A DNA stretch of 64,000 bases from Polyangium jinanense (GCF_028435265.1 NZ_JAGTJK010000012.1:102900-166899); one strand, 5' to 3'; numbered from the stretch's first letter, positions 29,521 to 54,665 are shown. Numbers and translations: made by a program. The notes: a model not told the origin generated them from the sequence alone.

Positions 29521-29527
29521 GGGCGCG

Positions 29528-34326: not shown

Positions 34327-34340
34327 GAGACAGAGCCTCG

Positions 34341-35593: not shown

Positions 35594-36094
35594 ATGGCAG
35601 AGAGCAAGCAGCACTGGCTGGACCGAAACCGTCCGCCGCGTGTGCAGATCACCTATGACGTCGAGACGGGCAACGCAATCGAGAAGAAAGAGATCCCGTT
35701 CGTGGTCGGCGTGCTCAGCGACCTGGGGCGGAACGAGGCAAACCCGCTGCCCAAGCTGAAGGATCGCAAGTTTGTCGAGATCGACCGCGACAATTTCAAC
35801 GACGTCCTCGCCTCGACGAAGCCCGAGATCACGGTGAAGGTCGACGACGTCCTCAAGGGCACCGGCAAGATCGGGATTCCGCTGACGTTCACGCACCTCG
35901 ACGATTTCCGGCCCGAGCGTCTCGTCGAGCGGATCCCGGAGCTCCGCAAGCTTCTTCGCGCGCGCGAGCGCCTGAACGATCTTCTCGCCAAGCTCGAGGG
36001 CAACGACGAGCTTTCGGCGGCGCTGCGTGAGGTCATGGAGAGCACGGATGCTCTCCAGAAGATCACGGCGGAAGTCTCCAAGGATCAGAGCTAG
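35594..36094 (+). CDS. tssB: Type VI secretion sheath small subunit TssB (VipA)
   Basis: RVQITYDVETG...EIPFVVGVLSDL matches the TssB N-terminal signature. Confidence 0.9.
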   Translation: MAESKQHWLDRNRPPRVQITYDVETGNAIEKKEIPFVVGVLSDLGRNEANPLPKLKDRKFVEIDRDNFNDVLASTKPEITVKVDDVLKGTGKIGIPLTFTHLDDFRPERLVERIPELRKLLRARERLNDLLAKLEGNDELSAALREVMESTDALQKITAEVSKDQS

Positions 36095-36114
36095 GCCGCG
36101 CGGAGGGTACGAAC

Positions 36115-37617: not shown

Positions 37618-37654
37618 CGGGCCTCGCGAATCGGTGTAGGGTACATCAGGATGT

Positions 37655-37690
37655 TGCCGTCCCGCGCTCGAAGGGAGCGCGCGGGCGGCG
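37655..37690 (+). terminator. Imperfect GC-rich hairpin between tssC and hcp (possible attenuator/processing site)
   Basis: cccgcgctc-gaaggga-gcgcgcggg inverted repeat in the 103-bp tssC-hcp spacer. No clear U-tract. Confidence 0.25.
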
Positions 37691-37720
37691 ACGGTCGACG
37701 GGGACGCGGAGGATTGCACG

Positions 37721-38215
37721 ATGGAAACTAGTTTCTTGGAGATCGAGGGCGTCAAAGGCGAGAGCACGGCGAGCCAGGGGAAGGACAAGATCGAGATCCT
37801 TTCCTTCAGCCACACCGTCGCGATGCCTCTGACGGCGGGCGGCTCGGCGAACGCGCGCGCGCACGGCCGCACGGTTCATTCGGACTTCACGTTCAGCAAG
37901 TATCTCGACATCTCGTCGCCCACGCTGAACCTCAAGTGCAGCGGCGGCGACAACATCAAGAAGGCCGAGCTCACCGTCTTCCAGGCCGACAAGAATGACG
38001 GCGACATGGTTCTTTATTACAAGATCACGTTCGAGGACGTGATCCTGACGAACGTCGCGGTGAGCGGCGGCAGCGGCGGTCGTCCGGTCGAGACGGTCAC
38101 GTTCAACTACCGCAAGATCAAGTGGTCGTACGCCCAGCAGGGCCAGCCTTCGCCGGCCGGCAAGAAGGGCACGGCCGAGGCGGGGTGGACGCTCGAGGAA
38201 AACAAGAAGCTCTAA
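37721..38215 (+). CDS. hcp: Type VI secretion tube protein Hcp (TssD)
   Basis: 164 aa. The N-terminus FLEIEGVKGEST....KIEILSFSH is a classic Hcp signature. GGAGG RBS. Confidence 0.9.
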   Translation: METSFLEIEGVKGESTASQGKDKIEILSFSHTVAMPLTAGGSANARAHGRTVHSDFTFSKYLDISSPTLNLKCSGGDNIKKAELTVFQADKNDGDMVLYYKITFEDVILTNVAVSGGSGGRPVETVTFNYRKIKWSYAQQGQPSPAGKKGTAEAGWTLEENKKL

Positions 38216-38251
38216 CCCGAGGACGATTCGGCGTCCCAGGGGAACGACAGA

Positions 38252-38728
38252 ATGGCGAAAGCGTGGGGAGCCACGAGCGCGGGCAGGGTTCCCCTGTTCG
38301 ACCGGCTGGTCGACGAGAACCCTGCTCAAAAACAGGAAGCCGTCCCCTATTGCACCCTCGATCGAGACGGGCTGCGCGCCTCGGTGGCCCGCGAGCTCGG
38401 TCGAATCCTCGGCACCCGCAGCCCCATCTCCGGCGACGAGGCTCTCTCCCGGCAGCGCACGACCATCGATTATGGTTTGCCCGACCTCGAGCTCGGCGGC
38501 CGTGCGCTCGTCCCGGAGGAGCTTCGCCGTCTCGTGCGCCTCGTGCAAAAGACGATCGAGGCGTACGAGCCGAGGCTCCAGAACGTACGCGTGGAAATCA
38601 AGCGATGCGAGGACGCGCCGCCGCATGCGCGCCTCGTGGTCGCGCTCTCGGCGACGCTCGTCACCGACGAGGTGCGTGAGCCCCTCTCGTTCGAGGCGCC
38701 GCTCGAAGGAGGCCCGGGGGCCGCATGA
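38252..38728 (+). CDS. tssE: Type VI secretion baseplate protein TssE (gp25-like)
   Basis: PLFDRLVDE..SV.RELGRILGTR...YGLPDL...RLV.L.IE.YEPRL..V.V matches the TssE/GPW-gp25 pattern. Confidence 0.85.
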   Translation: MAKAWGATSAGRVPLFDRLVDENPAQKQEAVPYCTLDRDGLRASVARELGRILGTRSPISGDEALSRQRTTIDYGLPDLELGGRALVPEELRRLVRLVQKTIEAYEPRLQNVRVEIKRCEDAPPHARLVVALSATLVTDEVREPLSFEAPLEGGPGAA

Positions 38729-40533
38729 GCAAGGGTGATCCGGATCGGGAAATGCTCGAGCTGTATGCGCGTGAGCTCGCGTATCTGCGCGAGCGTGGCG
38801 CCGAGTTCGCCAAGGATTATCCGAAGATCGCGGCGCGCCTCGGCACCTCGAACCAGGCCTCGTCCGATCCACACGTCGAGCGCCTGGTCGAGGCATTCGC
38901 GTTCCTCTCGGCGCGCCTCACGCGCGACATCGAGGCGGAGCTGCCGATTTACACGACCTCGCTGCTCGGCACCCTTTATCCGCAGCTCGCGTGTCCCGTG
39001 CCGGCGATGGCGATCGCCGGGTTCGAGATCGACCCGAAGGAGGCCAAGCTCGGCTCCGGGTACACGGTCGAGAAGCACACGCCGCTTTTCGCGGCCTCGC
39101 AAACCGGGCCGGTCTGTCATTTCCGCACCGCGTATCCGGTCACGCTCTGGCCGATCGAGATCGTCAATGCGGGCATGGTCCCGCCCGAGAACCTCGACGT
39201 TCCCTCGTGGCTGCTCACGAACGCGGCGGCGGCGCTGGAGATCGAGATCGCGACGGGCGGCGTTCCGCTCGACAAACTCGGCATGCGCTCGCTCCGCTTC
39301 CACATCACGGGCGGGGGCATGGGCGCGGCGCGCCTCTACGATCTGCTCGCGGCGCACGCCGTGCAGGTCCTCGTGGTCGGGGAAAAACCCTCGGAGGACT
39401 GGGCCTACGGAAAGATCCGGCCCGTCGGCTTCGAGGCGAACGAGGACGTCCTGCCGTATCCGCCGCACGCGCACCGCGGCCATCGCCTCGTGCAGGAGTA
39501 TTTCGCGTTCCCGGAGAAGTTCCATTTCTTCGACCTCGAACTGCCGAAGCTCCCGCCGCGCAAGAACGCGAAGATCCTCGTCCTCTTCGATCAGAAGCCG
39601 CCGGCCGGCGTCGCGGTTCGCCCGACGACGTTGAAGCTCGGCTGCACCCCGATCATCAACCTCTTCCCGCGCAGCGCCGAGCCCATCCGCGTCGATCACA
39701 CCCGGCCCGAATATCGCCTCGTCGCGGACGCGCGTCGCGAGCGGACCACGGAGATCCATTCGATCACGCGCGTCGCGGCCACGGCGCCCGGCGAGCCCAA
39801 GCAGATCGATTACGCGCCTTTCTTCTCGTTCGTGCACCACCGCGCGGGCGAAAGACCCCGCGCGTTCTGGCACGCGCGCCGCGTCGCCACGGGCCGCAAG
39901 GATCTGCCGGGCACCGACGTCTGGCTCACGTTCGTCGACACCGATTTCAAGCTCTCACGTCCCCCGTCGGAGACCGTTTACGCCGGCGTCCTCTGCACGA
40001 ACCGCGACCTCGCGAACGAGATCGCCAAGGACACGCAGCTCTCCCCCGAGCGCCCCGTCCCGGCCAAGAAAATCGTTTGTCTGACGAAACCAACCCCCCA
40101 GCGCGCCGCGCCGATGGGCGGCGAAGCGCTCTGGCGGCTCGTCTCGAACCTTTCGCAGAACCACCTCTCGATCACGGACGGCAAGACCGGCGTCGCCGCG
40201 CTCCGCGAGATCCTGCGCGCCTACGTCTTCGGCGATTCGCCCGACGCCGAGCGCCAGATCGACGCGCTCCTCGAAATTTCGAGCCGCGTGGTCACGCGTC
40301 GCCTCGGCAATGACGCGTGGCGGGGGTATTGCCGGGGCCTCGAGATCACGCTCACGCTCGCGGACGAGCAGTTCGCCGGATCGAGCCCGGTCCTTTTGGC
40401 CTCGGTCTTGAGCCGATTTTTCGCCTTGCAGGCGCACATCAATGCGTTCACCGAGCTCGTCCTGAAGCGCGCCTCGCGCGCGGAGGTCTGGAAACGATGG
40501 CCGCCCACGGCTGGCGAAAGAGCCCTTCTGTAG
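38725..40533 (+). CDS. tssF: Type VI secretion baseplate protein TssF
   Basis: N-terminus LELYARELAYLRERGAEFAKDYPKIAARLG..DPHVERLVEAFAFLSARL is the TssF signature. 602 aa. Confidence 0.9.
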   Translation: MSKGDPDREMLELYARELAYLRERGAEFAKDYPKIAARLGTSNQASSDPHVERLVEAFAFLSARLTRDIEAELPIYTTSLLGTLYPQLACPVPAMAIAGFEIDPKEAKLGSGYTVEKHTPLFAASQTGPVCHFRTAYPVTLWPIEIVNAGMVPPENLDVPSWLLTNAAAALEIEIATGGVPLDKLGMRSLRFHITGGGMGAARLYDLLAAHAVQVLVVGEKPSEDWAYGKIRPVGFEANEDVLPYPPHAHRGHRLVQEYFAFPEKFHFFDLELPKLPPRKNAKILVLFDQKPPAGVAVRPTTLKLGCTPIINLFPRSAEPIRVDHTRPEYRLVADARRERTTEIHSITRVAATAPGEPKQIDYAPFFSFVHHRAGERPRAFWHARRVATGRKDLPGTDVWLTFVDTDFKLSRPPSETVYAGVLCTNRDLANEIAKDTQLSPERPVPAKKIVCLTKPTPQRAAPMGGEALWRLVSNLSQNHLSITDGKTGVAALREILRAYVFGDSPDAERQIDALLEISSRVVTRRLGNDAWRGYCRGLEITLTLADEQFAGSSPVLLASVLSRFFALQAHINAFTELVLKRASRAEVWKRWPPTAGERALL

Positions 40534-41558
40534 AGGCCTGGCTCTTCGACGAGGGGCACGCCTTCGATTTTTATCAGGCCGTCTCCCTCCTCGAACGCTT
40601 TCGGGAAGGCGACGCCGTCCCCGTCGGCGAGGGCTCCGATCCTTCGCGCGAGTCCGTGCGATTCGCCGGGAGCATCGCGCTCGCCTTCCCCGAGACCGAC
40701 GTCGCGCGCATTCGCCCGCCGCACCGCGAACGCGAGCCCGCGCAGATGCTCGTGAACTTCCTCGGTCTCGGCGGCGCCCTCGGCCCACTGCCGCCGCCGA
40801 TCGTCGAGTCGATTTACATGCGCGCCGTCCGCGGCGACACCGCGGCGCGGGATTTCCTCGACATCTTCAACCATCGCCTCGTCTCGTTCGCATATCGCAT
40901 CCGCAAGAACCATCGCCTCGGCCTCGGCATCTCCTCGCCCGAAAAAGACGGCGCGGCGCGGCACCTCTTCGCGCTCATGGGCCTCGGCTTTCAGGCGCTC
41001 GAAGGCCGCCTCGCGGTCCAGGATCGCGCCCTGCTCGAACACGCGGCAAACCTCGGAAGCGAGTCCCGTTCGCTCGAAGGCCTCGTCGCCATTCTCCGCC
41101 GGCATTTCGGCGTCCCCATCGAGCCCATCCCGCTCACAGGCGCCTTTCACCCGATCGAGGAAAACGATCGCACGGCGATCGGCCGATCCGGTCAGAACCG
41201 CGCACTCGGCCGCGACGCATGTCTGGGGGGCCGTTTCTGGGATCAGGAGTCCACGTTCGATCTGCGCATCGGGCCCATGAAGCTCGATGAATTCCTGCGA
41301 TTCCTCCCGGACGGCGACGCGCTCCGGCCTCTCTGCTCCCTCGTCCGTTTTTATGCAGGCGCACGATTCCACTTTGGCCTCATCCTCGTGCTGGCCGAGG
41401 GCGAGGCGCCGCGGATCGAGCTCGGCCGCGCCACGTGCGCGCTCCTCGGCCAAATCGCCTGGCTCGGAAACGTGAACAAGCACGGCGGCAGGGTGCGCGA
41501 GGTGCGTTTGTCGCGTGCGGCCATTCGGAAAGGCCTCGGTGAGGCGCCGGGCGGCTGA
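40497..41558 (+). CDS. tssG: Type VI secretion baseplate protein TssG
   Basis: FDFYQAVSLLE motif. 353 aa. Overlaps the tssF 3' end. Confidence 0.85.
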   Translation: MAAHGWRKSPSVEAWLFDEGHAFDFYQAVSLLERFREGDAVPVGEGSDPSRESVRFAGSIALAFPETDVARIRPPHREREPAQMLVNFLGLGGALGPLPPPIVESIYMRAVRGDTAARDFLDIFNHRLVSFAYRIRKNHRLGLGISSPEKDGAARHLFALMGLGFQALEGRLAVQDRALLEHAANLGSESRSLEGLVAILRRHFGVPIEPIPLTGAFHPIEENDRTAIGRSGQNRALGRDACLGGRFWDQESTFDLRIGPMKLDEFLRFLPDGDALRPLCSLVRFYAGARFHFGLILVLAEGEAPRIELGRATCALLGQIAWLGNVNKHGGRVREVRLSRAAIRKGLGEAPGG

Positions 41559-45296: not shown

Positions 45297-45686
45297 TCAG
45301 GGCACCTGCACCGTGACCTGCCCGGGGAACGAGATCTGAATCACCCCGCCCCACATGCACATCAGCTTCGAGCTGTTGTTCAGCGCGGGCATGTTCGCGA
45401 GCAGCACCGTTGGGGCACCGACGATCCACGGCGCCGGCGTGTTCGGAATGCACGGCATTGGCGTGAGCACGCCCATCGCCGCCGCCGTCGCCGCGGCCAC
45501 CGTCGGGTTCGCCAGGCTCTGACACATCCCGAACGGCAGCACGTTCAGCATGGGCTTGCCGTCCATGATGTTCGCCAGCGGCCCCGCGCTGTTCATCGTC
45601 CGGTTCGCGGGAAGCACCGTGAGCGAGCTCGGCGCCACGCCGAAGCTGCATTGCATCATCGCCCCCATGCATACGTGCTGGCCCAT
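45297..45686 (-). CDS. DUF4280-family PAAR-like protein (T6SS spike tip)
   Basis: VCMGAMMQCSFGVAPSSL.V...N......PLANIMD..P..NVLPFGMC.S.ANP.V...TAAAMGVLTPMPCIP.T..PW..GAPTVL....PAL...S...C.WGG.I.I.FPGQ matches the DUF4280 pattern. Confidence 0.85.
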   Translation of the reverse strand: MGQHVCMGAMMQCSFGVAPSSLTVLPANRTMNSAGPLANIMDGKPMLNVLPFGMCQSLANPTVAAATAAAMGVLTPMPCIPNTPAPWIVGAPTVLLANMPALNNSSKLMCMWGGVIQISFPGQVTVQVP

Positions 45687-45688: not shown

Positions 45689-46441
45689 TCAGCCTCCCGC
45701 GAGCTTGTTCACGACCTTGTCGAAGAAGGACTCTTTTTTCTCCTCCTTCGCCTTCGGAATGCCCTTGTCGTCGTACTCGACCTCGCCGCGCTTCTCGCCG
45801 TCCTTGTACGTCGCCTTCGCCTTCAGCTTGCCCTGCACGTCGTAGCTGAACGCGTCGCCTTGCTTCTTGCCGTTGTCATAGATGGCGCGCTCGCGGACCT
45901 CGCCGTTCGGGAAGTACTCGATCACCTCCCCGTGCAGTTTGTCGGCCTTGTAGCTCGCTTTGCGCAGGGTGTTGCCCTTGCCGTCGAGGAACAAGGATTC
46001 CCCTTCGAGCTTGCCGTTCTTGTAGAACGACCGGACGACCTCGTTGCCCTGCTCGTCGAACGACATGAACGGGCCGTTCTGCTTGCCCTTCTCGAAATGC
46101 ATGAGCGTCCGGAGCCGGCCGTCGTCGTAGAGCCGCGTCGGCCCGTGCTGCTCGCCCTTCGCGAACGTGACGATCTGCGAGACCTTGCCGTTCTCGTCTA
46201 CGATCTTCGTCTCGCCGTGGAGCACGCCGTCCTGGAATGACGAACGCTCGACCTCGCGTCCTTCCGGATCGTACGTGATCGACAAACCGTGCAGCTTGCC
46301 GTTCTTGTAATTCGCCCGGTGCGCGATCTGCTTTTCGGTCTCCCCGTACTGGACGAACTCGCCGTGGAGCACGCCGTCTTCCATCTCGAACCGGGAGATC
46401 AGCTTGCCGTTCTCGTCGCGCTCTTCGTGGTCGGTCGGCAT
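45689..46441 (-). CDS. MORN-variant (YwqK-family) repeat protein
   Basis: Eight repeats of Y/F-K-N/D-G-K-x-H/Q-G-x-x-x-x-Y/F-D-x-x-G. Confidence 0.8.
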   Translation of the reverse strand: MPTDHEERDENGKLISRFEMEDGVLHGEFVQYGETEKQIAHRANYKNGKLHGLSITYDPEGREVERSSFQDGVLHGETKIVDENGKVSQIVTFAKGEQHGPTRLYDDGRLRTLMHFEKGKQNGPFMSFDEQGNEVVRSFYKNGKLEGESLFLDGKGNTLRKASYKADKLHGEVIEYFPNGEVRERAIYDNGKKQGDAFSYDVQGKLKAKATYKDGEKRGEVEYDDKGIPKAKEEKKESFFDKVVNKLAGG

Positions 46442-46451: not shown

Positions 46452-48452
46452 CTAATTGATCTTCACCATGCCGCCCTTCAAGGTCAGCATGCCGCCGCCC
46501 TCCACCGCCGCCTGCGCGCCGCCCTTCGCCTTCAGCGCGATCGCGCCCTCGAGCGTCATGTTCGTCCCGCCCTTGGCCTTGAAATCGGTGCCGGCCTTCA
46601 GGTCCATCGCCGTCCCGGACTCGGCCTTGAAATCCGTGCCCGCCTTCATCGAAAACGCCTGCTTGGCCTTGATCGTGACGCTCTTCGCCTCGATCACGAG
46701 GTCGCCGTCGACCTTGATCGTGTAGTTCTTCGTCACCTTGTAATCGAGGTTCGCCTTGTTCGTGTGCGCCTCGTCCTTGGTGACCGTGAGCGTGCGTTTG
46801 CCCTTCACGCTGTGCGTCTCGTCGCCCTTGTCGACCTTGATCGTGCGGTTGCCCTTGGTGACCGTGAGCGTCTCGTCGCCCTCCTCGATCGTCACCTTCC
46901 GCTCGTTTTTGACGTTCTTCGTGTAATCGTGGAGGACCTTGACCGTCCAGTCGTTCTCCACCTCGAAGAGCATGTCCTTCTGGGCGTGCGCGTAAAACTC
47001 CTCGTTATCCTTCTTGTCGTCGAAGCGCAGTTCGTTCCCCGCCTCGCCCTCCTTCGACGATCGGCTCAGGATCGTGCTCTTCGTCTGCGCGCCCGGCAGC
47101 CCATAAGGCACCGTCTGCTCGGCGTTGTACACCGAGCCCGTCACGAGCGGCCTGTCCGGGTCGCCGTCGATGAAGCTCACGACGACCTCCTGCCCGATGC
47201 GCGGCAAGAACCACGCGCCCCAGCTCTTGCCCGCCCACGCCTGCACGACGCGCACGAAGCACGAGCTCTTGTCGTCCTTCGCGCCCTTGCGATCCCAGTG
47301 GAACTGGACCTTGATGCGCCCGTATTCGTCGGTCCACTGCTCCTCGCCGCTCTTGCCCACGACGACGGCCGTCTGCGTGCCGGGGATCGCGGGCTTCGGC
47401 GTGATGCGCGGCGGGCGGTACGACGTCTTCTTCGGGAACGCCTCGAAGGTATTCGTGTACCCCTCCTGGCTTGCGCGGTGCATGATCGAGGTGAGAACCC
47501 AGTCCGTGTTCGCGTCGTCCCGATCGTGCTCGTCGAGCTTGAACGCGTGCCCCGCCGTGAAGGCGCGGCAGCTCGATGTACCCGACAAACGCACCGCCCG
47601 CGCCTCCTCGGCCTCGATGCGGAGCTTCGCGCGCGTGTCGCCCGGGCTTTTCTCGATGTGCCCGCCCGGGTACTCGAAGAGCTCGAGCTTGGCCGTTTCG
47701 CCCGAGACCTCCGCGAGCAGCGACGTGCTCGGCATCTCGAAGTTGTAATCCGTCGACGCGTACTTTCCCGCGACGATCTCCTCTTCGAGCGTGCACTCGA
47801 GGACGGCGTCCTCGTCCGTCGACGTGGAGAACTGCTCGACGAACCGCGCCTTGTCGAGGTTCGGGCACGGCGCGGCCGACGCGCTGTCGTCCGAGAGCAC
47901 CATCACGTGCTTGCCGTCCTCGTGCTTGAAATAATAATGGATCCCCTCGTCCTCCATGAGCCGCGACACGAAATCGAGCGCGGTCTCCTGGTACTGCACG
48001 CAGTAGGGGCGCGGGGTGTAGGAGCCCTTCAGCGAATCCTTGAAGTGCTCGCCCGACGAGAAGCCGAGCTCCTGGAAGAGCGCCTTCAGGATGTCGGGCA
48101 CGCTCTTCTCCTGGAAGATCCGGCAATCGCTGGTCTTGCCGAGCAGCCATAACCACGGGTGCAGCTCCGCGCGGTAACGCGTCTGCTTGCCGACGCGCCC
48201 CGCCTGGACGAACCGCGTGCAGATCCCGTGGATGAAGCGCGGCTTCTCCTTGGCCATGCCCCGGATCGTCAAGGTCACGCCCTTGCCGACGATCGCCTTG
48301 AAGTCGAGCGCCTTCTCCGGCGACAAAAGCTCGAGCTCGAAGCGGAAGAGCCCCGAGATCCGCTCTTCGCCATGCAGATCGACGAGCAGCACCGCGTCCG
48401 CGCCGAAGGGCGTCGAGATGGCGATGCCGAGGGTGCCCTGCGGATAAGGCAT
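46452..48452 (-). CDS. vgrG: Type VI secretion spike protein VgrG (TssI), 666 aa, no C-terminal toxin extension
   Basis: The N-terminal gp27-like and gp5-like regions are conserved (..TRYRAELHPWLWLL..; ..IKVQFHWDR...SCFVRV.Q.WAG..WGA.F.PRIGQEVVVSFIDGDPDRP). C-terminal beta-helix repeats. Confidence 0.9.
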   Translation of the reverse strand: MPYPQGTLGIAISTPFGADAVLLVDLHGEERISGLFRFELELLSPEKALDFKAIVGKGVTLTIRGMAKEKPRFIHGICTRFVQAGRVGKQTRYRAELHPWLWLLGKTSDCRIFQEKSVPDILKALFQELGFSSGEHFKDSLKGSYTPRPYCVQYQETALDFVSRLMEDEGIHYYFKHEDGKHVMVLSDDSASAAPCPNLDKARFVEQFSTSTDEDAVLECTLEEEIVAGKYASTDYNFEMPSTSLLAEVSGETAKLELFEYPGGHIEKSPGDTRAKLRIEAEEARAVRLSGTSSCRAFTAGHAFKLDEHDRDDANTDWVLTSIMHRASQEGYTNTFEAFPKKTSYRPPRITPKPAIPGTQTAVVVGKSGEEQWTDEYGRIKVQFHWDRKGAKDDKSSCFVRVVQAWAGKSWGAWFLPRIGQEVVVSFIDGDPDRPLVTGSVYNAEQTVPYGLPGAQTKSTILSRSSKEGEAGNELRFDDKKDNEEFYAHAQKDMLFEVENDWTVKVLHDYTKNVKNERKVTIEEGDETLTVTKGNRTIKVDKGDETHSVKGKRTLTVTKDEAHTNKANLDYKVTKNYTIKVDGDLVIEAKSVTIKAKQAFSMKAGTDFKAESGTAMDLKAGTDFKAKGGTNMTLEGAIALKAKGGAQAAVEGGGMLTLKGGMVKIN

Positions 48453-48570: not shown

Positions 48571-49860
48571 ATGACGTTCTTCCGAACGGGCCATGGTCTC
48601 TTCCAGTTCGGGAGGCCGAAGCGCCTCGACAGGCACGGGATCCTCGCCTTTCTGCGCAGCGTCGCGACCGATCGTGGAGGCATGCTGGAGCTTCGGCGCA
48701 TCCTCGCCGACGAGCTGCATCGCACGTCGATCCACAACATGCGCGACGAGCTCGTGATCGAGCAGCTCGCGGACCGTTACCTGCGCGGCTCGCTCACGCT
48801 CGTCCACGTGCGCCCGCTCGACATCGGGATCGAGCTCGAGGGCTTCCTCGTCGAAGGCGCGGACGCCACGCCTTTGACCGGCCCGAAGAACGAGGCCGGC
48901 GACCTGCGCCCCGCGCCCGAGGTCCCACCCGAATATCCGGTCCTCGCGCGTGTCGAGTCCGATCAGATCATCGACTCCACGCTGAAGCTCGTCGCGAAAC
49001 TCGGCGATCTGCTCTTCGGGGCGTTTGGCCTGCAAAAACGTCCCTCGACGCTCGCGAAGGAGCTCGTGCTGCTCGCCGCCGAAGAGGCGAGCGGCGTGAA
49101 GCTCGCGAACACGAAGGTCGATCTCGATCTCGGGTTGCAACTGCATCCGCAGGGCAAGATCCTGCTGCCCGATCCGCAAGTGAAGGACGCGTACGTCGCC
49201 GCGGCGGCCGAGATCGCGGCGGGGCCGCGTCCGGCGGCAAAGGGTCTCATCGATTTGATGTGGCCGCTCACGCGGGTCGACACGAACCGCCGCTTCGACA
49301 ATCCCGTCGGGGCCGGGCCGGTGAAGAGCGATCAAAGCGACGGGAAGAAGGGCCCCGAGGCCGCGCTGGATTGGGTCGAAATCGAGCTCGTCGACGACGG
49401 CGATCCGCCGAAGCCCTACGCCGGCGCGCGGTATCGAATCGAGCTCGAGGGCGGCAAGGTGATCGAGGGGACGCTCGACGACGACGGCAAGGCGCGCGTC
49501 GATGGGATTCCGTCGGGCAGCGGGACCGTCACGTTCCCGGACATCGACGCCGGGTTTTGGGGGACGAACGGCGCAGGCAGCGCAGGCGCCGCCGCGCCGC
49601 CGCCTCCGTCTTCGTCGTCGTCCTCCGCGGTCTCCGCGGACGAGGCGTGGGTCGAGATCGAGCTCGTCGACGACGACGACCCGCCGAAGCCCCGCGCCGG
49701 CGCGCGATATCGTATCGAGCTCGAGGGCGGCAAGGTGGTCGAGGGGACGCTCGACGACCAAGGGAAAGCGCGCGTCGACGGGATTCCGTCGGGCAGCGGG
49801 ACCGTCACGTTCCCGGATATCGATGGCAGCACGTGGGGGCCGGGAGAACGAGGCACATGA
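48571..49860 (+). CDS. Hypothetical protein (429 aa) with two C-terminal copies of a ~55-aa repeat (W.EIELVDD.DPPKP.AGARYRIELEGGKV.EGTLDD.GKARVDGIPSGSGTVTFPDID)
   Basis: AGGAAG RBS. The internal duplication is exact at many positions. No catalytic motif recognised. Divergent from vgrG. Confidence 0.55.
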   Translation: MTFFRTGHGLFQFGRPKRLDRHGILAFLRSVATDRGGMLELRRILADELHRTSIHNMRDELVIEQLADRYLRGSLTLVHVRPLDIGIELEGFLVEGADATPLTGPKNEAGDLRPAPEVPPEYPVLARVESDQIIDSTLKLVAKLGDLLFGAFGLQKRPSTLAKELVLLAAEEASGVKLANTKVDLDLGLQLHPQGKILLPDPQVKDAYVAAAAEIAAGPRPAAKGLIDLMWPLTRVDTNRRFDNPVGAGPVKSDQSDGKKGPEAALDWVEIELVDDGDPPKPYAGARYRIELEGGKVIEGTLDDDGKARVDGIPSGSGTVTFPDIDAGFWGTNGAGSAGAAAPPPPSSSSSSAVSADEAWVEIELVDDDDPPKPRAGARYRIELEGGKVVEGTLDDQGKARVDGIPSGSGTVTFPDIDGSTWGPGERGT

Positions 49861-50072
49861 GCGACGAAGTCCTTTACTCCGATCTCGGGATTCCCGAGTG
49901 GGATCCGGACCGCGAACCTGCGGCGGAGCCCGAGGCCGGCGCGTCCCCCCCGGGGCCGCCCGCGCAGGGCTCCATCGAGGATATGGGCGTGCGCTGCGTG
50001 GCGCGGTCGGCGGACGGGACACGAGCGGTGTGTACGCTCGAAGTGCTGCGGCCGTTTGTCCTGTCCGCTTGA
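49857..50072 (+). CDS. Small acidic hypothetical protein (71 aa), translationally coupled (ATGA) to the upstream gene
   Basis: The ATG overlaps the stop of 48571-49860. Short ORF, so weak support. Confidence 0.3.
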   Translation: MSDEVLYSDLGIPEWDPDREPAAEPEAGASPPGPPAQGSIEDMGVRCVARSADGTRAVCTLEVLRPFVLSA

Positions 50073-50098
50073 GCTGACGACGCATCCTGGAGAACGCC

Positions 50099-53000
50099 AT
50101 GAGCAAGAAGATGCCGACGAAAGGGGTGCTCACGTTCGAGGCCGAGGGCAGCGACTCGAGCAGCTCGCCTTATTACTCGCGCGTGCTCCACCACCCGACG
50201 ATGGGGTCGGGCGTGACGATCGGCCGCGGCTACGACATGAAGGACCGTTCGTCCGCGGACGTCGAAAAAGATTTCGTCGCGGCGGGTCTGTCCGCGGATG
50301 TCGCGAAGAAGTATGCCAAAGGCGCGGGGCTCACGGGGTCCGAGGCGCGGACGTTCGTCACGAACAACAAGGGCGTCTTGCCCGAGCTCACGTGGGACCA
50401 GCAGCTCGCGCTCTTCGAGTCCACGTATGCGTGGCACGAGAAGGACGTCAAGCGCATCTGCGACAAGGAAGATTGTCAGAACATCTACGGCGTCGTGGAC
50501 TTCAAGACGCTCCACCCGCGCATCCTCGACGTGCTCGTGGATCTCAGGTTCCGCGGCGACTACACGCCCGCGTCGCGCAAGCGCATCCAGAAGCTCGTCG
50601 TCGAGAACGATTATGCGCGCTTCCGCGCGGACCTCTCCAATCGGTCGAACTGGAGCGCGGTGCCGGAGGACCGTTTCGATCGGCGGAGCAAGTACCTGAA
50701 GGACGCGCCGCAGACGGACGACACGGCCGATCACGAGGATGTGACGTACAGCACGCCGACCAAATCGTTTGACCTCAAGACGATGGGCGAGGCAGAGCTC
50801 TACGATCACCTCCGGAGCGTGTGGAAGGCGGAGCAGAAGGCGTTCGGCAACGAGGGCAAACCCGAATTCGACTTCCAGGACGAGGAGGGCCGCGTGAACC
50901 TGCTCGGCGCGCGCGGGTTCGACGCCGACCAGATGGTGCCCGTGCCGAGCACGAACACGAAATACGACGACACGCTTTTCCTCGTCTACAAGAAGGACGG
51001 CGCGAAGCACGTCGAGAAGTTCCACTACTCGAGCGAGTGGACGAGGACGGGCTCGAAGGGGGCCGTGATCATCCTCGGGCAGCACAAGTACTGCCTGGCG
51101 ATCCACAAGAAGCTCAAGGAAGACGGCACGCCCTACCCGTACAACAAGCTCCCCGCGTGGCGCGATTACTACAACACGAACAAGACGCAGCCGCCGGGAG
51201 CCGGTTACCGCGCATTGAACCCGGACCCGACGGTCGGCATCGTCCGCGTGCACGATGCAAGCGCGGCAGGATCCGTGGGCGCTGAGACCACGGGGGTCAC
51301 GCAGAACGCCTCGATCAACATCCATTACGGCGGCGAGGTGCCGAGCGGCTGGACGCCCAGCAAGGGGTGGTCCGACGGGTGCCAGGTCCTCATGCGCGGC
51401 GACCGGTACCTGCGGTTCATGGAGGTCATCGAGTCCGATCACTCCCTGAAGGGCACGATCAACAACGAGCTCGCGCCCAAGCCTTCGGCCGACGGGAAGC
51501 GGTCGCTCATCTACACGCTCGTCAAGGGCGACTCCCTCGCGCCGAGGGACGCGCCGTCCATGGGGTTCCCCGTGGACATCGGCAAAGGGAAGAAGATCGA
51601 CAATTCGACCACGCTCGCGATGTTCGAGCACACCGAGAAGACGATCGACAGCGGCTATTTCCCTCTCGGGACGAATACGACCTGGCACGGCGGCGCCCAT
51701 TTGCACGTCGCCGAGGGGACCGCGGTCCACGCGATGTTCGACGGGCGGATCGTCGCCGCGCGGCTGCCCGCGGCGGCGGACAAATCGAAGGGGGCCTTCG
51801 GCAGCAGGAACTTCATCCTGATCCGGCACGAGATCGACGGGGATCGCTTGAACAAGGCGAATGCCCTGCTCAAGCGCACCCTCATCGGGTACACGATCCG
51901 CGCCGAGACGCTCGTGCTCCGCAAGGAGCCGGGCAACGCCGCGGCCGTCGTCGATACCTTGAAGGTGGGCGACGAGGTGCTGCTGAAGACCGTCCCCCAT
52001 CCGAAGAAGGACGGCGTCTCGTGGGCGCACGTCGTCGTTTCCAAATCGGCGAAGGAAGGCCTGAAGGACAAGGTCGGCTATGTGGCCGCCACGTCCTTGC
52101 TCGTCACGCCCAGGTACGCGCCGCCGAAGGAGCGCGTGAAGCCGTCCGAGACGCGGGTGGTGTATTCGCTCTACATGCACCTCGGGCCCCAGGCGCTCGA
52201 CACGACGAACTCCGTCCTCGCCTCGATCCCCTGGGTCTCGGGGGCGCAGTGGAGCGTGTCGGACGACGTCCGGCTCCGCAGCGCGCCGGGCGTCCCGGAT
52301 CCGGACAAGACGCAGATCGGTACGCTCGTCTCCGGCGACACGTTCGTGCAGCTCACCCCCGACCTCGTGACCGCGGGGAGTTATCAGTGGATGAAGGTCC
52401 GCGTCACCAAGGCGAAAGACGCGAAGCTCGCGAACAAGGAGGGGTTCGTCGCGAAGCTCGACAAACGCATGAGCCTCACGAAGGCGCCGAGCGCGGAGAT
52501 CCTCGACAAGCTCAAGTCCGGCGACGTGGTCAAGCTCGACAAACCGGTGGTCGCGGGGGAGCAGATCTGGACGGCGGGCACGATGACGGGGGCCTCGGGT
52601 GGGGCGCAGGCGGGCATTCACTGGGAGGTCTTCTCGGAGCAGCCCCTCTTCCCGGACTGGCCGTCCGCCGACGATCCCGACGAAAATCTGAACATGGACG
52701 TGAAGAAGATTTTCGACATGATCGAGCAGGAGTTCTGGGGGTACAACGACACGATCTCCGCGTCCGAGCTGAACGATTTCTACAAGAACAATCCCAAGGC
52801 GAAATCGCTGCGATACTACGCGTGCCGGTTCATGAGCGAGTGGGGCTGCGACATCGACAAGGCCGTCGCGCAGATCCAATCGAGGGGGCTCTACAGCGTC
52901 TCGGGGCTCGCCGACAAGATGCGGCCCTACCTGTGGTGGAAGGAGGCGGAGGGCAAGAAGGTGGAGCTGCCGAAGAGCCCGATCGTCTGGCACTACAACC

Positions 53001-53986
53001 CGATCGGGTTCGTCTACGCGATGACCAAGATCGAGGAGACCCCCGCCCCGCGCACCGAGCCGGCGCAGACGAAGGAGGATCCGAAGGTCGCCACGGAGAC
53101 GCAATGGTCCGGCGTCGCGTACGGCGATTACGTGCTGAAGAAGGGCGACGACGACGGCAAGCAGACCTGGGGCGGCCTCGCGCGCAAGGAGAAGGGCACA
53201 TACGTGGTCGAGCTGCAGAAGGATCTGCTCGAGCTCGGCTACTGGATCAGCGCCGCGAGCTCGAACAAGGGGATGAACGCCGACGGCAATTTCGGCGGCA
53301 CGGTGCGCGGCGCCGTCATGCTCTTCCAGCGCGAGCACGGGTTGAAGGAGACGGGGGAGGTCGACGCGGCGACGGCGAAGCTCATCAAGGAAAAGACGAA
53401 GGTAGCGAACTACGAGCGGCCCGGGCACAAGGCGGGCGATTACGGTCAGTTTTATCAGCTCCCGCCTTCGGAGAACTACGAGCGGTACGACGAGGTGCGC
53501 GACGACAATTGCATCCCGAAGGACAACTGGGGCACGAAGGAGATGATCAAGATGCTCACCTCCGCGGGCAAGGCCTGGAAGGAGCAAGGAAAGTCGCTGT
53601 TCCTGGTCGGGGACGTCTCGCTCTACAACGGTGGCAAGATGGACCCGCACAAGTCCCACCAGGACGGCACCGGCGTGGACCTCGACTCCGATGAGCTGTG
53701 CAGCATCAACCGGGCGACGTTCAAGAAAGAGGAGTCCCTGTCGCTCACGCAGCTGCTCATCAAGCACGGCGCGAAGCGCGTCCTCTTCAATTGCAAGTAC
53801 GTGACCGACCAGGTGCCCGAGGCGTTCGCGTTATCGGGGCACCACCACCATTACCACGTCGACGTGAAGCCGGGGCTGAAGACGAACGAGCACCCCGAGG
53901 AGGAGTGCAAGTGGTGCCACAAGTCGGTGTACAAGAAGTGCGACTACGCCAAGAAGGCGAAGCGCTCGGACTCGGAGCTCACCTGA
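50099..53986 (+). CDS. Multi-domain peptidoglycan hydrolase (1295 aa): N-terminal lysozyme-like (phage/pesticin-type) domain, M23/LytM-like domain with atypical metal-ligand motifs, PG-binding domain and C-terminal M15/VanY-like (LAS) peptidase domain
   Basis: GSGVTIGRGYDM..LVDLRFRGDY (T4-lysozyme-like). EGTAVHAMFDGRIVAA / YSLYMHLG / TGASGGAQAGIHWEVF (M23 pattern with HLHF replaced by IHWE). LQKDLLELGYW..DGNFGG.VRGAVMLFQREHGL (PG_binding_1). KSHQDGTGVDLD...HHHYHVD (SxHxxGxAxD-like M15 motif). GGAGA RBS. Confidence 0.75.
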   Translation: MSKKMPTKGVLTFEAEGSDSSSSPYYSRVLHHPTMGSGVTIGRGYDMKDRSSADVEKDFVAAGLSADVAKKYAKGAGLTGSEARTFVTNNKGVLPELTWDQQLALFESTYAWHEKDVKRICDKEDCQNIYGVVDFKTLHPRILDVLVDLRFRGDYTPASRKRIQKLVVENDYARFRADLSNRSNWSAVPEDRFDRRSKYLKDAPQTDDTADHEDVTYSTPTKSFDLKTMGEAELYDHLRSVWKAEQKAFGNEGKPEFDFQDEEGRVNLLGARGFDADQMVPVPSTNTKYDDTLFLVYKKDGAKHVEKFHYSSEWTRTGSKGAVIILGQHKYCLAIHKKLKEDGTPYPYNKLPAWRDYYNTNKTQPPGAGYRALNPDPTVGIVRVHDASAAGSVGAETTGVTQNASINIHYGGEVPSGWTPSKGWSDGCQVLMRGDRYLRFMEVIESDHSLKGTINNELAPKPSADGKRSLIYTLVKGDSLAPRDAPSMGFPVDIGKGKKIDNSTTLAMFEHTEKTIDSGYFPLGTNTTWHGGAHLHVAEGTAVHAMFDGRIVAARLPAAADKSKGAFGSRNFILIRHEIDGDRLNKANALLKRTLIGYTIRAETLVLRKEPGNAAAVVDTLKVGDEVLLKTVPHPKKDGVSWAHVVVSKSAKEGLKDKVGYVAATSLLVTPRYAPPKERVKPSETRVVYSLYMHLGPQALDTTNSVLASIPWVSGAQWSVSDDVRLRSAPGVPDPDKTQIGTLVSGDTFVQLTPDLVTAGSYQWMKVRVTKAKDAKLANKEGFVAKLDKRMSLTKAPSAEILDKLKSGDVVKLDKPVVAGEQIWTAGTMTGASGGAQAGIHWEVFSEQPLFPDWPSADDPDENLNMDVKKIFDMIEQEFWGYNDTISASELNDFYKNNPKAKSLRYYACRFMSEWGCDIDKAVAQIQSRGLYSVSGLADKMRPYLWWKEAEGKKVELPKSPIVWHYNPIGFVYAMTKIEETPAPRTEPAQTKEDPKVATETQWSGVAYGDYVLKKGDDDGKQTWGGLARKEKGTYVVELQKDLLELGYWISAASSNKGMNADGNFGGTVRGAVMLFQREHGLKETGEVDAATAKLIKEKTKVANYERPGHKAGDYGQFYQLPPSENYERYDEVRDDNCIPKDNWGTKEMIKMLTSAGKAWKEQGKSLFLVGDVSLYNGGKMDPHKSHQDGTGVDLDSDELCSINRATFKKEESLSLTQLLIKHGAKRVLFNCKYVTDQVPEAFALSGHHHHYHVDVKPGLKTNEHPEEECKWCHKSVYKKCDYAKKAKRSDSELT

Positions 53987-53990
53987 GCCG

Positions 53991-54665
53991 CTAGAGCCCG
54001 TACACCTTCGCGAGCGCCTTCTGCGTCGTCGCGTCGTACTTGCCCGTCACGGAGATCTTTTCGGCGCGCTGGAAGGCCTCGATCGCCGCGGTCGTCGCCT
54101 CGTCGAGCGTGCCGCTCGGCTCGTCGGCATGAAGCCCGAGGTTCTTGAGGCGCGTTTGCGCCCCGCGGATCGTGTCGATCGGCTCGAGCTCGCCGAGCGC
54201 GAGCTTGTACGTTTGTCGCCGGTTCGGCAGCTTCAGCACCGCCTCGGCCTGATCCGCCGGCACCTCGGCTTCCAGTGTCCCGTCGTCCCCTGTCGTCCCC
54301 TCGAGCTTGCGCTCGCCGCACTCGATCTCCCAGGGCTCGTTCGCGAGCGGCTCCTGGCCCGCGGTGAGCTTCAGGTAGACCCGGACCTTTTCGCGCTTGA
54401 CCACGAACCTGTGCGACTTGCCCGTCTCGATCGGCGACGGCTTCGGCTTCGGCTGCGGCACCGTCACCTTGTCGCCCGGCGCGAGCACGTTCGGATCCTT
54501 GCGCAGCTTGCGCAGCGCCGCGTTCTCCGGCGCCTCCCATACCGTCTTCCACGGAAGACCGTATTTCGCCGCGATCGTCGCGATGCACTCCCCCGCCTGG
54601 ACGTCGTGTGTCGTGCCTGCCATGGCGATTCCCAGGCGATGATACACGTCGCGCTGTCCGATCAC
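53991..54665 (-). CDS. LysM + PG-binding-domain protein carrying the same ~55-aa repeat found in 48571-49860
   Basis: LysM (HDVQAGECIATIAAKYGLPWKTVW...LAPGDKVTVP). Repeat-like core (..WEIECGERKLEGTTGDDGTLEAEVP). C-terminal PG_binding_1 (IDTIRGAQTRLKNLGLHADEPSGTLDEATTAAIEAFQ). Convergent with the hydrolase gene, 4 bp apart. Confidence 0.7.
   Translation of the reverse strand: MIGQRDVYHRLGIAMAGTTHDVQAGECIATIAAKYGLPWKTVWEAPENAALRKLRKDPNVLAPGDKVTVPQPKPKPSPIETGKSHRFVVKREKVRVYLKLTAGQEPLANEPWEIECGERKLEGTTGDDGTLEAEVPADQAEAVLKLPNRRQTYKLALGELEPIDTIRGAQTRLKNLGLHADEPSGTLDEATTAAIEAFQRAEKISVTGKYDATTQKALAKVYGL

Follow-up and report, generated by a model that had tools for sequence, protein, structure and literature searches.

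Among the closest described systems are two T6SS effectors built on the same kind of domain. Awe1 of Aeromonas jandaei is an example of WHIX subclass II (Fridman et al., PLoS Biol 2025, PMC12135965); there, the WHIX domain is defined by a WHxxxH motif and is sufficient for T6SS secretion via the VgrG C-terminus. Most WHIX effectors have signal-peptide immunity genes, and double-blade effectors need two (PMC12135965). The same WHIX-type domain has also been reported as the amidase TseP-N, i.e. the N-terminal part of TseP of Aeromonas dhakensis, a dual amidase-lysozyme T6SS effector (Wang et al., eLife 2025, PMC11893102). TseP-N binds VgrG2, and members of the WHIX/TseP-N family have been found experimentally to be T6SS-secreted (PMC12135965, PMC11893102).

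In the window, i.e. the whole stretch of 64,000 nt of Polyangium jinanense DNA that was analysed, an effector locus adjoins both a complete T6SS cluster and a spike operon (VgrG/MORN/DUF4280), and the three are contiguous. The core genes TssK, TssL, TssM, TssA, TssB, TssC, Hcp, TssE, TssF and TssG (28165..41558, plus strand; Pfam, E 1e-13 to 1e-196) lie directly upstream and make up a canonical T6SS (TssB/C/K/L/M), not an eCIS. The spike operon is on the minus strand. It encodes a DUF4280 (PAAR-like) spike-tip protein of 129 aa (45297..45686; PF14107, E 1e-35), which is present in all syntenic loci, a MORN_2-repeat protein of 250 aa (45689..46441; PF07661, E 1e-18), whose position is taken by a 250/251-aa gene in every related locus, and the 666-aa spike protein VgrG (46452..48452; Phage_GPD E 3.5e-97, Gp5_trimer_C, Phage_base_V). 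As the first-pass annotation had stated, vgrG is divergent from the effector operon; it lies on the upstream side across a gap of 118 bp, and the effector slot beside it recurs in six other related loci. No ClpV was seen within the window, which was counted against the main reading.

The effector gene (50099..53986, plus strand) encodes a protein of 1295 aa, for which NCBI has an identical (100%) Polyangium jinanense entry under the name 'penicillin-insensitive murein endopeptidase'. The ORF and its domain homologies define a multi-domain, peptidoglycan-targeting protein of the WHIX class. Three enzyme blades surround the WHIX domain, therefore the protein is a member of subclass II, the 'double-blade' class, that carries three blades. 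Blade 1 (residues 1-203, 50099..50707) is a pesticin/TseP-C-like muramidase with a GVTIGRGYD motif, related to PF16754-bearing domains (E 1e-35 to 1e-48). Over residues 4-203 it shares 40-47% identity with the pesticin-like C-domains of TseP-type proteins, and E16 is aligned with the catalytic E663 of a TseP-like protein. Blade 2 (residues 219-494, 50753..51580) is a divergent Cys/His domain of the YkuD / L,D-transpeptidase fold with an invariant H409 and S-x-G-C428; it is without a Pfam model. A PG_binding_1 domain follows the WHIX region at residues 1033-1095 (53195..53383; PF01471, E 4e-12). Blade 3 (53519..53878; H1187, D1194, H1251/H1253) is a LAS-type zinc peptidase, M74/MepA-like or M15-like, that matches Peptidase_M74 (PF03411) with 31-35 bits against a cut-off of 25. 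Both LAS motifs, SH1187QDGTGVD1194 and H1251-Y-H1253, are intact and conserved with the homologue P0006. An assignment of blade 3 as a MepA orthologue was ruled out, with 29.5 bits in NCBIfam against a cut-off of 272.

The first-pass annotation was thus right on the lysozyme-like N-domain, the peptidoglycan-binding domain and the C-terminal peptidase, but it missed the YkuD-like module. Its 'triple activity' likewise counted the wrong three, given that its M23-like domain is the WHIX domain, the catalytic role of which is disputed. In the domain-wise HMM searches that it proposed, PG_binding_1 was matched clearly and M74 above the cut-off, but Pesticin and M23 matched the 1295-aa protein below the gathering thresholds. 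These two sub-threshold matches were counted against the main reading.

The region read earlier as M23-like (WHGGAH...YMHL...IHWE) does carry the motifs described, WHGGAH at residues 529-534 and IHWE at 840-843, but it is the bipartite WHIX domain, which serves in T6SS loading. Region 1 (residues 505-600, 51611..51898), assigned by BLAST and motif, contains W529-H530-G-G-A-H534, the M23-like 'motif 1'; BLAST pairs residues 501-586 with the N-terminal ends of TseP-type proteins from Aeromonas, Pseudomonas and Enterobacter, and the WHGGxH motif occurs 75 times among 90 other matches. The variable spacer (51899..52483) has a conserved YMH694L strand between two inserts that resemble SH3b (about residues 601-668 and 720-795; weak SH3_3 match). 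In homologues, other modules replace the inserts, and FYSLYMHL is kept. Region 2 (residues 800-985, 52496..53053) contains I-H841-W-E, followed by a helical part up to WHYNP, and is conserved across homologues; an xHFE motif is found in P0040, a close homologue of TseP. HMMs of this region match WHIX/TseP-type proteins of Pseudomonas and Enterobacter weakly (iE 4e-4 to 1e-3), and the weak similarity to these gammaproteobacterial proteins (iE about 1e-3) was also counted against the main reading.

Two further proteins flank the effector, and the first-pass annotation described them as sharing a private repeat. The upstream protein, of 429 aa (48571..49860, plus strand; the start agrees with the homologues and with NCBI model P0092), consists of a conserved, mostly helical N-terminal region of about 260 aa and two TTR/prealbumin-like repeats, and its homologues (280-515 aa) adjoin vgrG in all Polyangium loci. 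The repeats, which are prealbumin/TTR-like beta-sandwiches at residues 264-325 (49360..49545) and 356-417 (49636..49821), are identical at 55 of 62 positions. The pairwise similarity of the repeats to the central domain of the downstream LysM protein is weak (E 0.07); at the profile level the sharing is real (hhalign 95%, E 3.8e-8, 40 columns). The repeat is not private, however, given that VgrG and PAAR proteins of other genomes carry the same type C-terminally. Repeat and LysM protein family co-occur in Sorangium, in Planctomycetota and in one metagenome locus. In the AF2 model of the 429-aa protein, confidence is restricted to residues 20-75 and the repeats, and the N-domain gave no match to a known adaptor family; the low confidence and the missing family match for this domain were counted against the main reading.

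The ATGA junction (49857-49860) had been taken as a sign of tight co-expression. It joins the 429-aa gene not to the effector but to a previously missed acidic ORF of 71 aa (49857..50072, plus strand; pI 4.1), which ends 26 bp before the effector. The C-terminal motif of this ORF, MGVRxVxRSAxGT...L/V..F.LS, is conserved in relatives: it is shared with ORFs of 94-98 aa directly upstream of effector homologues in loci L002, L004, L008 and L009 (E 4e-9), and in P0135 it is fused to the LysM protein. The downstream protein, of 210 aa, has the LysM and PG-binding domains attributed to it (PF01471 E 3e-12; LysM match weak) with a TTR-like sandwich between them, but its gene is on the opposite strand (53991..54623, minus) and is convergent with the effector, therefore the two are not co-transcribed. 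All 29 homologues and the NCBI model begin at the ATG at 54623, hence the 4-bp junction at 54662-54665 reported earlier is an artefact of the longest ORF. Members of this family lead effector cassettes in L002, L004, L008, L009, L010 and L006. A co-oriented cassette of 210-aa gene, small ORF and effector is seen in L002, L004, L008, L009 and the orphan locus L010, in the last case away from any vgrG. In the Planctomycetota locus L006 the family heads three cassettes, whose large genes gave no PG-hydrolase Pfam match, one being weakly alpha/beta-hydrolase/lipase-like.

The analysis established directly the gene structure, the domain homologies, the conservation of catalytic residues, the synteny and the lack of export signals. 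A role of the 1295-aa protein as T6SS cargo that attacks peptidoglycan in its glycan and its peptide part, as had been suggested, is well supported by the full T6SS core, the recurrent slot beside vgrG and the membership in the WHIX/TseP-N family. We consider it likely that the protein is a WHIX-class subclass II cargo of the T6SS next to it in Polyangium jinanense; how it is secreted, which partners load it, which bonds it cuts and what the accessory proteins do we infer from sequence. By analogy with Awe1 and TseP, the WHIX domain (residues about 505-985; M23-like beta core with WH530xxxH534, YMH694 and H841WE) would put the effector onto the neighbouring VgrG, probably aided by three accessory proteins, i.e. 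the 71-aa acidic protein, the 210-aa LysM-TTR-like-PG_binding_1 protein and the 429-aa protein, whose TTR-like repeats are of a kind that VgrG and PAAR proteins normally carry at the C-terminus. The predicted target is the Gram-negative periplasm, where PG_binding_1 and the SH3b-like inserts may anchor the effector on the sacculus. Judging from domain homology, the muramidase (E16) would cleave glycan strands, the YkuD-fold module (H409, C428) would attack L,D bonds in the stem peptide, be it by carboxypeptidase, endopeptidase or exchange activity, as Tlde1 does, and the LAS zinc peptidase (H1187, D1194, H1253) would be an M74/M15-type D,D- or L,D-peptidase of stem peptides or cross-links. The WHIX domain may in addition act as a MurNAc-L-Ala amidase, as reported for TseP-N (PMC11893102), which would be a fourth activity.

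This last role is disputed. An active Zn-dependent amidase, which would bring the number of lytic activities to four, agrees with the conservation of four histidines at M23-like metal and catalytic positions (H530, H534, H694, H841), with Pfam M23 matches in 6 of 20 family segments (best E 6e-7) and with TseP-N, whose activity is lost by His-to-Ala mutations or EDTA and regained with Zn (PMC11893102). However, the Awe1 WHIX domain alone is non-toxic in the E. coli periplasm, and it can carry GST and GFP and therefore behaves as a loading chassis (PMC12135965). Moreover, the canonical HxxxD is replaced by HxxxH, there is a Gly at the first His of HxH, and the published residue numbers map inexactly onto a homologue, so amidase activity seems to us possible rather than probable. 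The flanking proteins raise a similar question. Both show genetic linkage to the effector in several genomes, LysM and PG_binding_1 are domains that would attach to the substrate, and an immunity gene is normal on each side of WHIX double-blade effectors (PMC12135965), which would suit the earlier proposal of immunity proteins shielding the producer's own peptidoglycan. We find this proposal unlikely. No Sec-like hydrophobic N-terminus or TM-like segment was found in the effector or its neighbours; for the effector this bears out the earlier remark and favours the T6SS route, but for the flanking proteins it speaks against a periplasmic location, the LysM domain beginning within about 5 residues of the N-terminus in 29/29 family members. 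The L006 cassettes pair the family with large genes that do not resemble PG hydrolases, the 210-aa gene is transcribed separately in the window, and the repeat sits at VgrG and PAAR C-termini, i.e. where effector-loading domains are located. Since the flanking proteins are without signal peptides and their repeat is of this kind, a role as adaptor, which had been named as the alternative, or as co-effector fits better. Neither here nor in the syntenic loci does a signal-peptide gene, the candidate for periplasmic immunity, stand beside the effector, and this too was counted against the main reading.

Two other explanations place the protein outside T6SS warfare. The position at the edge of the T6SS cluster, the lack of an immunity gene and the NCBI name murein endopeptidase would agree with a housekeeping or T6SS-assembly enzyme like TagX or MltE, i.e. 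no toxin, that opens the producer's own wall. We regard this as highly improbable: there is no signal peptide or membrane anchor for reaching the own periplasm, the WHIX loading domain and the homology point to secreted effectors, and the score is far below the MepA equivalog cut-off. In addition, the architecture is highly polymorphic between closely related Polyangium genomes (1186-1701 aa, with differing C-termini), as is typical of effectors rather than of core accessory enzymes. The genus Polyangium is commonly counted among the bacteriolytic myxobacteria, and a lysin released independently of the T6SS by lysis, in vesicles or as phage-tail-like eCIS cargo could act on prey walls from outside. 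Some relatives of the muramidase module (P0030-P0034) bear a DUF4157 'eCIS core domain', and the L010 cassette without vgrG points the same way. The outer membrane of Gram-negative prey, however, shields peptidoglycan from external enzymes. The local machine is not an eCIS, the effector is without an export signal, and WHIX proteins occur almost only in T6SS-positive genomes (PMC12135965), which leaves such a lysin a very small chance. The preferred reading is that of a T6SS cargo effector.

Tlde1 is an L,D-transpeptidase-like effector that is delivered by the T6SS and attacks stem peptides. Blade 2 is like Tlde1 of Salmonella Typhimurium (PDB 7UMA) in its YkuD fold and H...(S/T)xGC catalytic motif; it differs in that there is no detectable sequence similarity, the motif is SDGC and not SHGC, and the domain, about 275 aa long and extended at the N-terminus by a helix and beta region, forms one module of a mega-protein, whereas Tlde1 stands alone with about 170 aa. 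The 62-aa repeat is a small prealbumin-like sandwich like the cargo-recruiting TTR extensions of EAEC VgrG1-Tle1 (PDB 6SJL) and P. aeruginosa VgrG4b-PldA (PMC6684961). In other genomes the repeat type takes the corresponding place, at the very end of VgrG and PAAR proteins, but here it is duplicated on a separate protein whose effector binding is putative, and the LysM/PGB protein contains a related sandwich. Tse4 of Acinetobacter baumannii (Le et al. 2021, cited in PMC11893102 and PMC12135965) is a bifunctional transglycosylase and endopeptidase that likewise cuts glycan strand and peptide part within one T6SS effector; its domains are unrelated, it is without WHIX, it has two activities against three or four here, and it needs a single immunity protein.

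The likeness to TseP lies in the homologous pesticin-like lysozyme module (about 40% identical to that of P0040, the catalytic Glu being aligned), in the WHGGxH / YMH / xH(F/W)E module and in the direct binding of VgrG by TseP-N (PMC11893102). TseP carries WHIX at its N-terminus and the lysozyme at its C-terminus (856 aa in P0040), whereas the Polyangium protein begins with the lysozyme and has YkuD-like, PGB and LAS modules in addition. A cognate immunity protein, TsiP, belongs to TseP, and none is recognisable at the Polyangium locus. With the Awe1-type double-blade effectors the protein shares the central bipartite WHxxxH domain with its variable spacer, peptidoglycan-targeting domains on both sides of it, a gene beside vgrG in a T6SS-positive genome and the lack of a signal peptide; pesticin-like, MepA-like and PG_binding_1 + M15 modules are all in the fused-domain lists of PMC12135965. 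Unlike Awe1-type proteins, it has two enzyme modules N-terminal to WHIX, SH3b-like inserts in the spacer and a YkuD-fold module that is not in those lists, and accessory genes (LysM-TTR-PGB, small acidic, TTR-repeat) stand in place of flanking signal-peptide immunity genes. The host belongs to Myxococcota, and the parts of the PMC12135965 supplement text considered here contain no Polyangium or Myxococc entries. The module order is also swapped relative to the commonest WHIX layout, with the muramidase N-terminal and the LAS peptidase C-terminal. In other words, the protein is an elaborate variant of a known toxin class, in which several cell-wall cutters are joined to a recently described loading domain.

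Gene calls in the window, where the GC content is 64-75%, were based on GC3 and on comparison with homologues. The gene of the 1295-aa effector (50099-53986, + strand) begins 26 bp after a small acidic ORF of 71 aa (49857-50072, +), which overlaps the stop of a 429-aa gene (48571-49860, +) through an ATGA junction. Divergent from the 429-aa gene lie the genes of VgrG (46452-48452, -), a MORN_2 protein (45689-46441, -) and a PAAR-like DUF4280 protein (45297-45686, -). A gene for a 210-aa LysM/PG_binding_1 protein (53991-54623, -) is convergent with the effector gene. Directly upstream, on the + strand, is the full T6SS core set, i.e. TssK, TssL, TssM, TssA, TssB, TssC, Hcp, TssE, TssF and TssG. 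The first-pass annotation had reported ATGA and 4-bp gene junctions. The 4-bp overlap, between the LysM gene and the methyltransferase ORF upstream of it, is not real, because all 29 homologues and the NCBI model use the ATG at 54623 that gives 210 aa, as opposed to a GTG that would give 224 aa. The methyltransferase ORF itself (54662-56902, -) is 746 aa long vs 513-527 aa in its homologues, therefore its true start is probably far downstream of 56902.

BLAST comparison with its 90 database relatives splits the effector into independently mobile modules, here called A to E from the N- to the C-terminus. Module C, at about residues 505-985, is the one that had been annotated as M23-like. Its conserved features are WH530GGAH534, a GS-NF-L-H strand, FYSLYMH694L and LH841WE-FSE, followed by a helical part ending in WHYNP. 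These features point to WHIX, which was defined by a WHxxxH motif and a bipartite layout with a variable spacer (Fridman et al., PMC12135965). The motif is W529-H-G-G-A-H534 in the effector; WHGGxH is seen 75 times in the other 90 hits, with every protein of the type of TseP, the Aeromonas dhakensis effector, among them, and it is invariant in alignment A2. Region 2 (residues 800-985) is kept across the relatives and the spacer is variable, and HMMs of region 2 match TseP-type proteins of Pseudomonas and Enterobacter weakly (iE 4e-4 to 1e-3). Two variable inserts break the module, SH3b-like in this protein and PG_binding-like or other modules in relatives. Homology to experimentally secreted, TseP-type members is seen in the match of residues 501-586 to residues 13-117 of the TseP-like protein P0040 (BLAST E 8.5e-8), with similar matches to P0024, P0027, P0038 and P0042. 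P0040 also has YMHI and VHFEVF; the residue numbers published for TseP (H19, H23, H109, H339...) could not be mapped onto it, so that the agreement is limited to spacing and motif order. Finally, the locus belongs to a T6SS-positive genome and lies beside VgrG and a PAAR-like gene, as is often the case for WHIX proteins. In other words, the WHIX tests that were run, on the motif, the bipartite arrangement, the relation to secreted members and the T6SS surroundings, all have a positive outcome.

Module C was also compared with the strict M23 (LytM/lysostaphin) family. A PF01551 match is present in the corresponding segments of 6 of 20 relatives (best E 6.3e-7), WHIX region 1, used as a profile against PDB, found no more than marginal lysostaphin matches (E 0.04) and spurious L35 ones, and the middle catalytic His of M23 is retained as YMH694. 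In the effector, PF01551 scores 17.6-20.4 bits vs a gathering threshold of 28.7 and aligns over profile positions 3-41 only, while HxxxD is replaced by H530xxxH534 and HxH by G839-I-H841. The effector thus falls short of strict M23 membership in both score and motifs. The motif alterations noticed in the first-pass annotation are genuine (a second His takes the place of the Asp in HxxxD, and HxH lacks its first His), but they are a family-wide trait of WHIX and not private to this protein. The presence of DUF4157 in some relatives had suggested an eCIS, a reading that was rejected because the local machine is a canonical T6SS. The name given by NCBI to a 100% identical P. jinanense protein, "penicillin-insensitive murein endopeptidase", would make the effector a MepA orthologue. 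In module E (residues 1141-1260) the Pfam family Peptidase_M74 (PF03411) does score above gathering (31.4-34.7 bits vs 25), with a match that spans only profile positions 31-111 of 240; close relatives carry M15_3 in place of M74. MepA orthology is ruled out by NCBIfam NF006947, which scores 29.5 bits vs an equivalog cut-off of 272, and the NCBI name covers only about 6% of the effector.

The catalytic role of the WHIX domain is disputed. WHIX is sufficient for T6SS secretion, has been proposed to cap the C-terminal tail of VgrG, can be flanked by toxic domains on either side ("double-blade", subclass II) and shows no toxicity alone in the periplasm (PMC12135965). TseP is listed as a WHIX protein in the same study. 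In TseP, the same region was described as a Zn-dependent MurNAc-L-Ala amidase, the model of TseP-N superposes on the M23 structure 3SLU, and TseP-N binds VgrG2 directly (Wang et al., PMC11893102). Both papers, on the domain found here as module C, date from 2025.

The flanking modules are enzymatic or wall-binding by homology. Module A (residues 1-203) is 40-47% identical over residues 4-203 to pesticin-like lysozyme domains in proteins of Aeromonas, Enterobacter, Pseudomonas and Sporocytophaga (BLAST), and the aligned domains carry precomputed PF16754 matches. The Pesticin model PF16754 itself remains sub-threshold on the effector (18.9-20.4 bits vs gathering 25.8). E16, within LTFEAEG, aligns with E663 of P0040; E663 is the essential catalytic Glu in TseP (PMC11893102). 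Module D is a PG_binding_1 domain (residues 1033-1095, E 4e-12). Module E has the LAS motif as H1187-x6-D1194 and H1251-Y-H1253, which is kept in P0006, the sole relative with the same C-terminus. PDB sequence searches with the whole effector, residues 1-220 and residues 1101-1295 gave chance or His-tag matches only. No segment of the effector resembles a signal peptide or a transmembrane helix, which bears out the earlier statement that its N-terminus has no obvious Sec signal.

Module B (residues 219-494) had been missing from the earlier domain list. Residues 221-490 have no Pfam match at E values up to 10, i.e. neither PF03734 nor a related family is matched by sequence profile, and a PDB search with the profile of the module B family found nothing. 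A signature, INIH-YGG...W-S-x-G-C-Q-V, is invariant across 17 relatives. In the effector INIH409YGG is followed after 15 residues by S425-D-G-C428-Q-V, and the H, S, G and C are invariant in the 17 sequences; this is the arrangement of YkuD enzymes, i.e. a His with (S/T)xGC about 14-19 residues further on. The AF2 model of the module (pLDDT 83, pTM 0.85) is predicted to have the fold of the YkuD catalytic domain, and a Foldseek search with it gave nothing significant. A full-library profile search returned 56 representative clusters (50% identity) at E<1e-30, a number that rises to about 1190 at E<1e-3. Fusion to PG_binding_1 is seen in several distant members, and the YkuD model of Pfam weakly matches one distant relative (E 0.006). 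From these observations module B is read as a divergent, putative YkuD-fold Cys/His enzyme that would act on stem peptides.

The proteins beside the effector are connected by a 62-aa repeat, of which the 429-aa protein has two copies (55/62 identical). The first-pass annotation had described this repeat as private to, and shared by, the flanking proteins. The sharing holds at the profile level, where a profile of 36 copies matches the central-domain profile of the 210-aa family with 95% probability (E 3.8e-8, 40 columns), but it is marginal in pairwise comparison with the 210-aa protein (E 0.07). The repeat is not private, since VgrG proteins (P0128-P0130 and that of Sorangium in locus L005) and PAAR proteins (P0125, P0126) also carry it at their extreme C-terminus. 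It shows weak CarboxypepD_reg and SpaA ("prealbumin-like") Pfam matches, in accordance with a TTR-like spike extension, i.e. a prealbumin-like sandwich at VgrG and PAAR C-termini.

It had been suggested that the accessory proteins could confer immunity. Signal-peptide immunity proteins accompany WHIX effectors in the "vast majority" of cases, and double-blade effectors need two (PMC12135965). Such flanking genes are a typical and not a defining WHIX feature. No signal-peptide immunity gene flanks the effector, and no periplasmic immunity candidate was found at the effector locus or the syntenic loci. This absence is the main weakness of the mechanism proposed below. None of the 429-aa, 71-aa and 210-aa proteins has a hydrophobic N-terminus, and signal peptides are absent from all 29 proteins of the 210-aa family, in which LysM begins within the first few residues. 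The known T6SS adaptors DUF4123/Tap, DUF1795/Eag and DUF2169 were considered for the three proteins and rejected, as there was no Pfam match; PADLOC-type defence functions were dropped for lack of matches. In a Planctomycetota MAG (L006, 1-12913) three successive cassettes, with three copies of the 210-aa family, lie downstream of vgrG. A protein of 129 or 145 aa with the repeat domain at its end comes immediately before two of these copies, and the middle cassette contains a third repeat-ending protein (134 aa). None of the large proteins following the copies (502, 693 and 747 aa) has a PG-hydrolase Pfam match, nor any known domain except for one weak lipase-like match. In Sorangium, two family members (239 aa and, in divergent orientation, 217 aa) are located beside VgrG(+repeat)-PAAR-VanY. 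This pattern resembles that of an adaptor or co-effector at the head of effector cassettes, and not that of immunity. P0135, a 240-aa member of the family from a metagenomic Polyangium, has the motif of the small acidic ORF, GMTFVARSADGTKLVNALDVTPRFELSV, at its C-terminus. Whether this reflects a natural fusion or a read-through in the gene call, P0135 links the two genes.

Six related loci (L001-L004, L008, L009) share the frame of the window. VgrG and MORN genes are present in all six and the DUF4280 gene in five, the sequence of L009 stopping short of that position; T6SS core genes are alongside in L003 and L004, the loci that stretch that far. Next comes a divergently oriented gene (280-515 aa) that shares homology with the N-terminal part of the 429-aa protein, and then a variable effector slot. 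Class I effectors (1186-1295 aa) have a C-terminal PG_binding_1 domain and M15/M74 peptidase. The long C-terminus of class II effectors (1674-1701 aa) is of another kind, and a 260-aa gene comes after them. Such polymorphism between loci is as expected of T6SS toxins. The 260-aa protein is conserved (L001 15111-15893, L003 15030-15812), has no signal peptide and no Pfam match, and is a candidate partner for the class II C-terminal domain. In all other class I loci the 210-aa LysM gene, the small acidic ORF (94-98 aa) and the effector gene are co-oriented with gaps of 15-27 bp, and the small ORFs of the different loci are homologous (E 4e-9). On the metagenomic contig L010 the three genes form the same cassette, with vgrG not nearby. 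Compared with L002, L004, L008 and L009, the small ORF and the effector gene are inverted in the window and now follow the 429-aa gene. Despite the inversion the small ORF has acquired its ATGA overlap with that gene. Inverted repeats were considered as the cause; none that is convincing was found, only short arms, 70-80% complementary, which are the shared sandwich motif seen on opposite strands. In L009 (6661-7950, -) HNH and GmrSD_N genes lie between two paralogues of the 429-aa gene family, which suggests that mobile or defence genes have a hotspot in the effector slot. A 1836-aa relative in L011 (8818-14328) combines a muramidase, Amidase_2, a YkuD-like module and WHIX, in a housekeeping neighbourhood with no vgrG called within the 24 kb covered; this architecture shows that the blades, i.e. 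the enzyme modules, are shuffled freely.

Several other genes of the window deserve mention. A probable second T6SS effector, of the nuclease type, is a 526-aa protein (23816-25396, +) encoded just upstream of the T6SS core, with a C-terminal WHH/colicin-DNase nuclease toxin domain (E 1e-15, 2e-13); neither of the two small ORFs that follow (25840-26616 and 26938-27510) matches Pfam. The space from tssG to the spike operon is occupied by a gene for a 1225-aa protein (41612-45289, +) with a long coiled-coil-like N-part and an Ala/Pro/Lys-rich tandem-repeat tail at its C-terminus (PAAKVE..., APDAKVA...); P. spumosum (L003) has a 1237-aa gene at this position. A membrane-anchored coiled-coil protein (56259-57233, +) carries ELSxxxREA repeats as well as a CxxC...HRC motif at its C-terminus and has a conserved counterpart of 340 aa in L001; its gene overlaps the implausible N-terminal extension of the methyltransferase ORF. 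An extremely Cys-rich repeat protein of 2092 aa (57347-63625, +) consists of CxxGxCV-type modules, with faint MopE-like matches in homologues; its gene is kept beside the methyltransferase in all the related loci L001-L004 and L008.

The anatomy of the effector, its conserved catalytic residues, its synteny and its lack of export signals are direct observations, and the following mechanism is proposed. Like Awe1 and TseP, the effector would be docked on the tail of VgrG by its WHIX domain. The TTR-repeat, small acidic and LysM-TTR-PGB proteins would help its loading or accompany it. Within the periplasm of the target the PG_binding_1 domain and SH3b inserts would keep the effector on the sacculus, which would be cut by modules A (muramidase), B (YkuD-like) and E (LAS peptidase), possibly by the WHIX amidase too. 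It is possible, if rather doubtful, that the 210-aa LysM-TTR-like-PG_binding_1 protein, the small acidic protein with its conserved C-terminal beta motif and the free-standing TTR-like repeat form an undescribed T6SS cargo-loading system (adaptor or co-effector), common to Polyangia, Sorangium and Planctomycetota, that replaces the usual adaptors and flanking immunity genes, and that module B is the founder of a new YkuD-fold toxin family.

The core idea of this architecture is already known since the WHIX and TseP papers; what is new lies in the additional blade, the cassette of accessory genes and the absence of immunity genes. The results extend the WHIX double-blade class, described only in 2025, to Myxococcota, and bring to notice a putative YkuD-fold module that has no Pfam model. 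With a muramidase, a YkuD-like module and a LAS peptidase at once, and four possible activities if the contested WHIX amidase is counted, the effector could take apart the sacculus at nearly every bond type. It is a natural template for engineered lysins as well. The conserved accessory cassette without export signals makes two questions testable, i.e. how very large cargo is loaded on the spike and how the producer survives without a recognisable immunity gene. As to the known systems, the host belongs to the Myxococcota, and the part of the WHIX supplement text covered here (PMC12135965) has no Polyangium or Myxococc entries. In both its position and its fold, the repeat corresponds to the TTR-like loading domains that T6SS spikes are known to carry. 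The described WHIX members have one or two blades and, in the published domain lists (PMC12135965), no YkuD-fold blade, whereas the present effector has three, a putative YkuD-fold one among them; its module order is swapped, and it has accessory genes where the described members have immunity genes.
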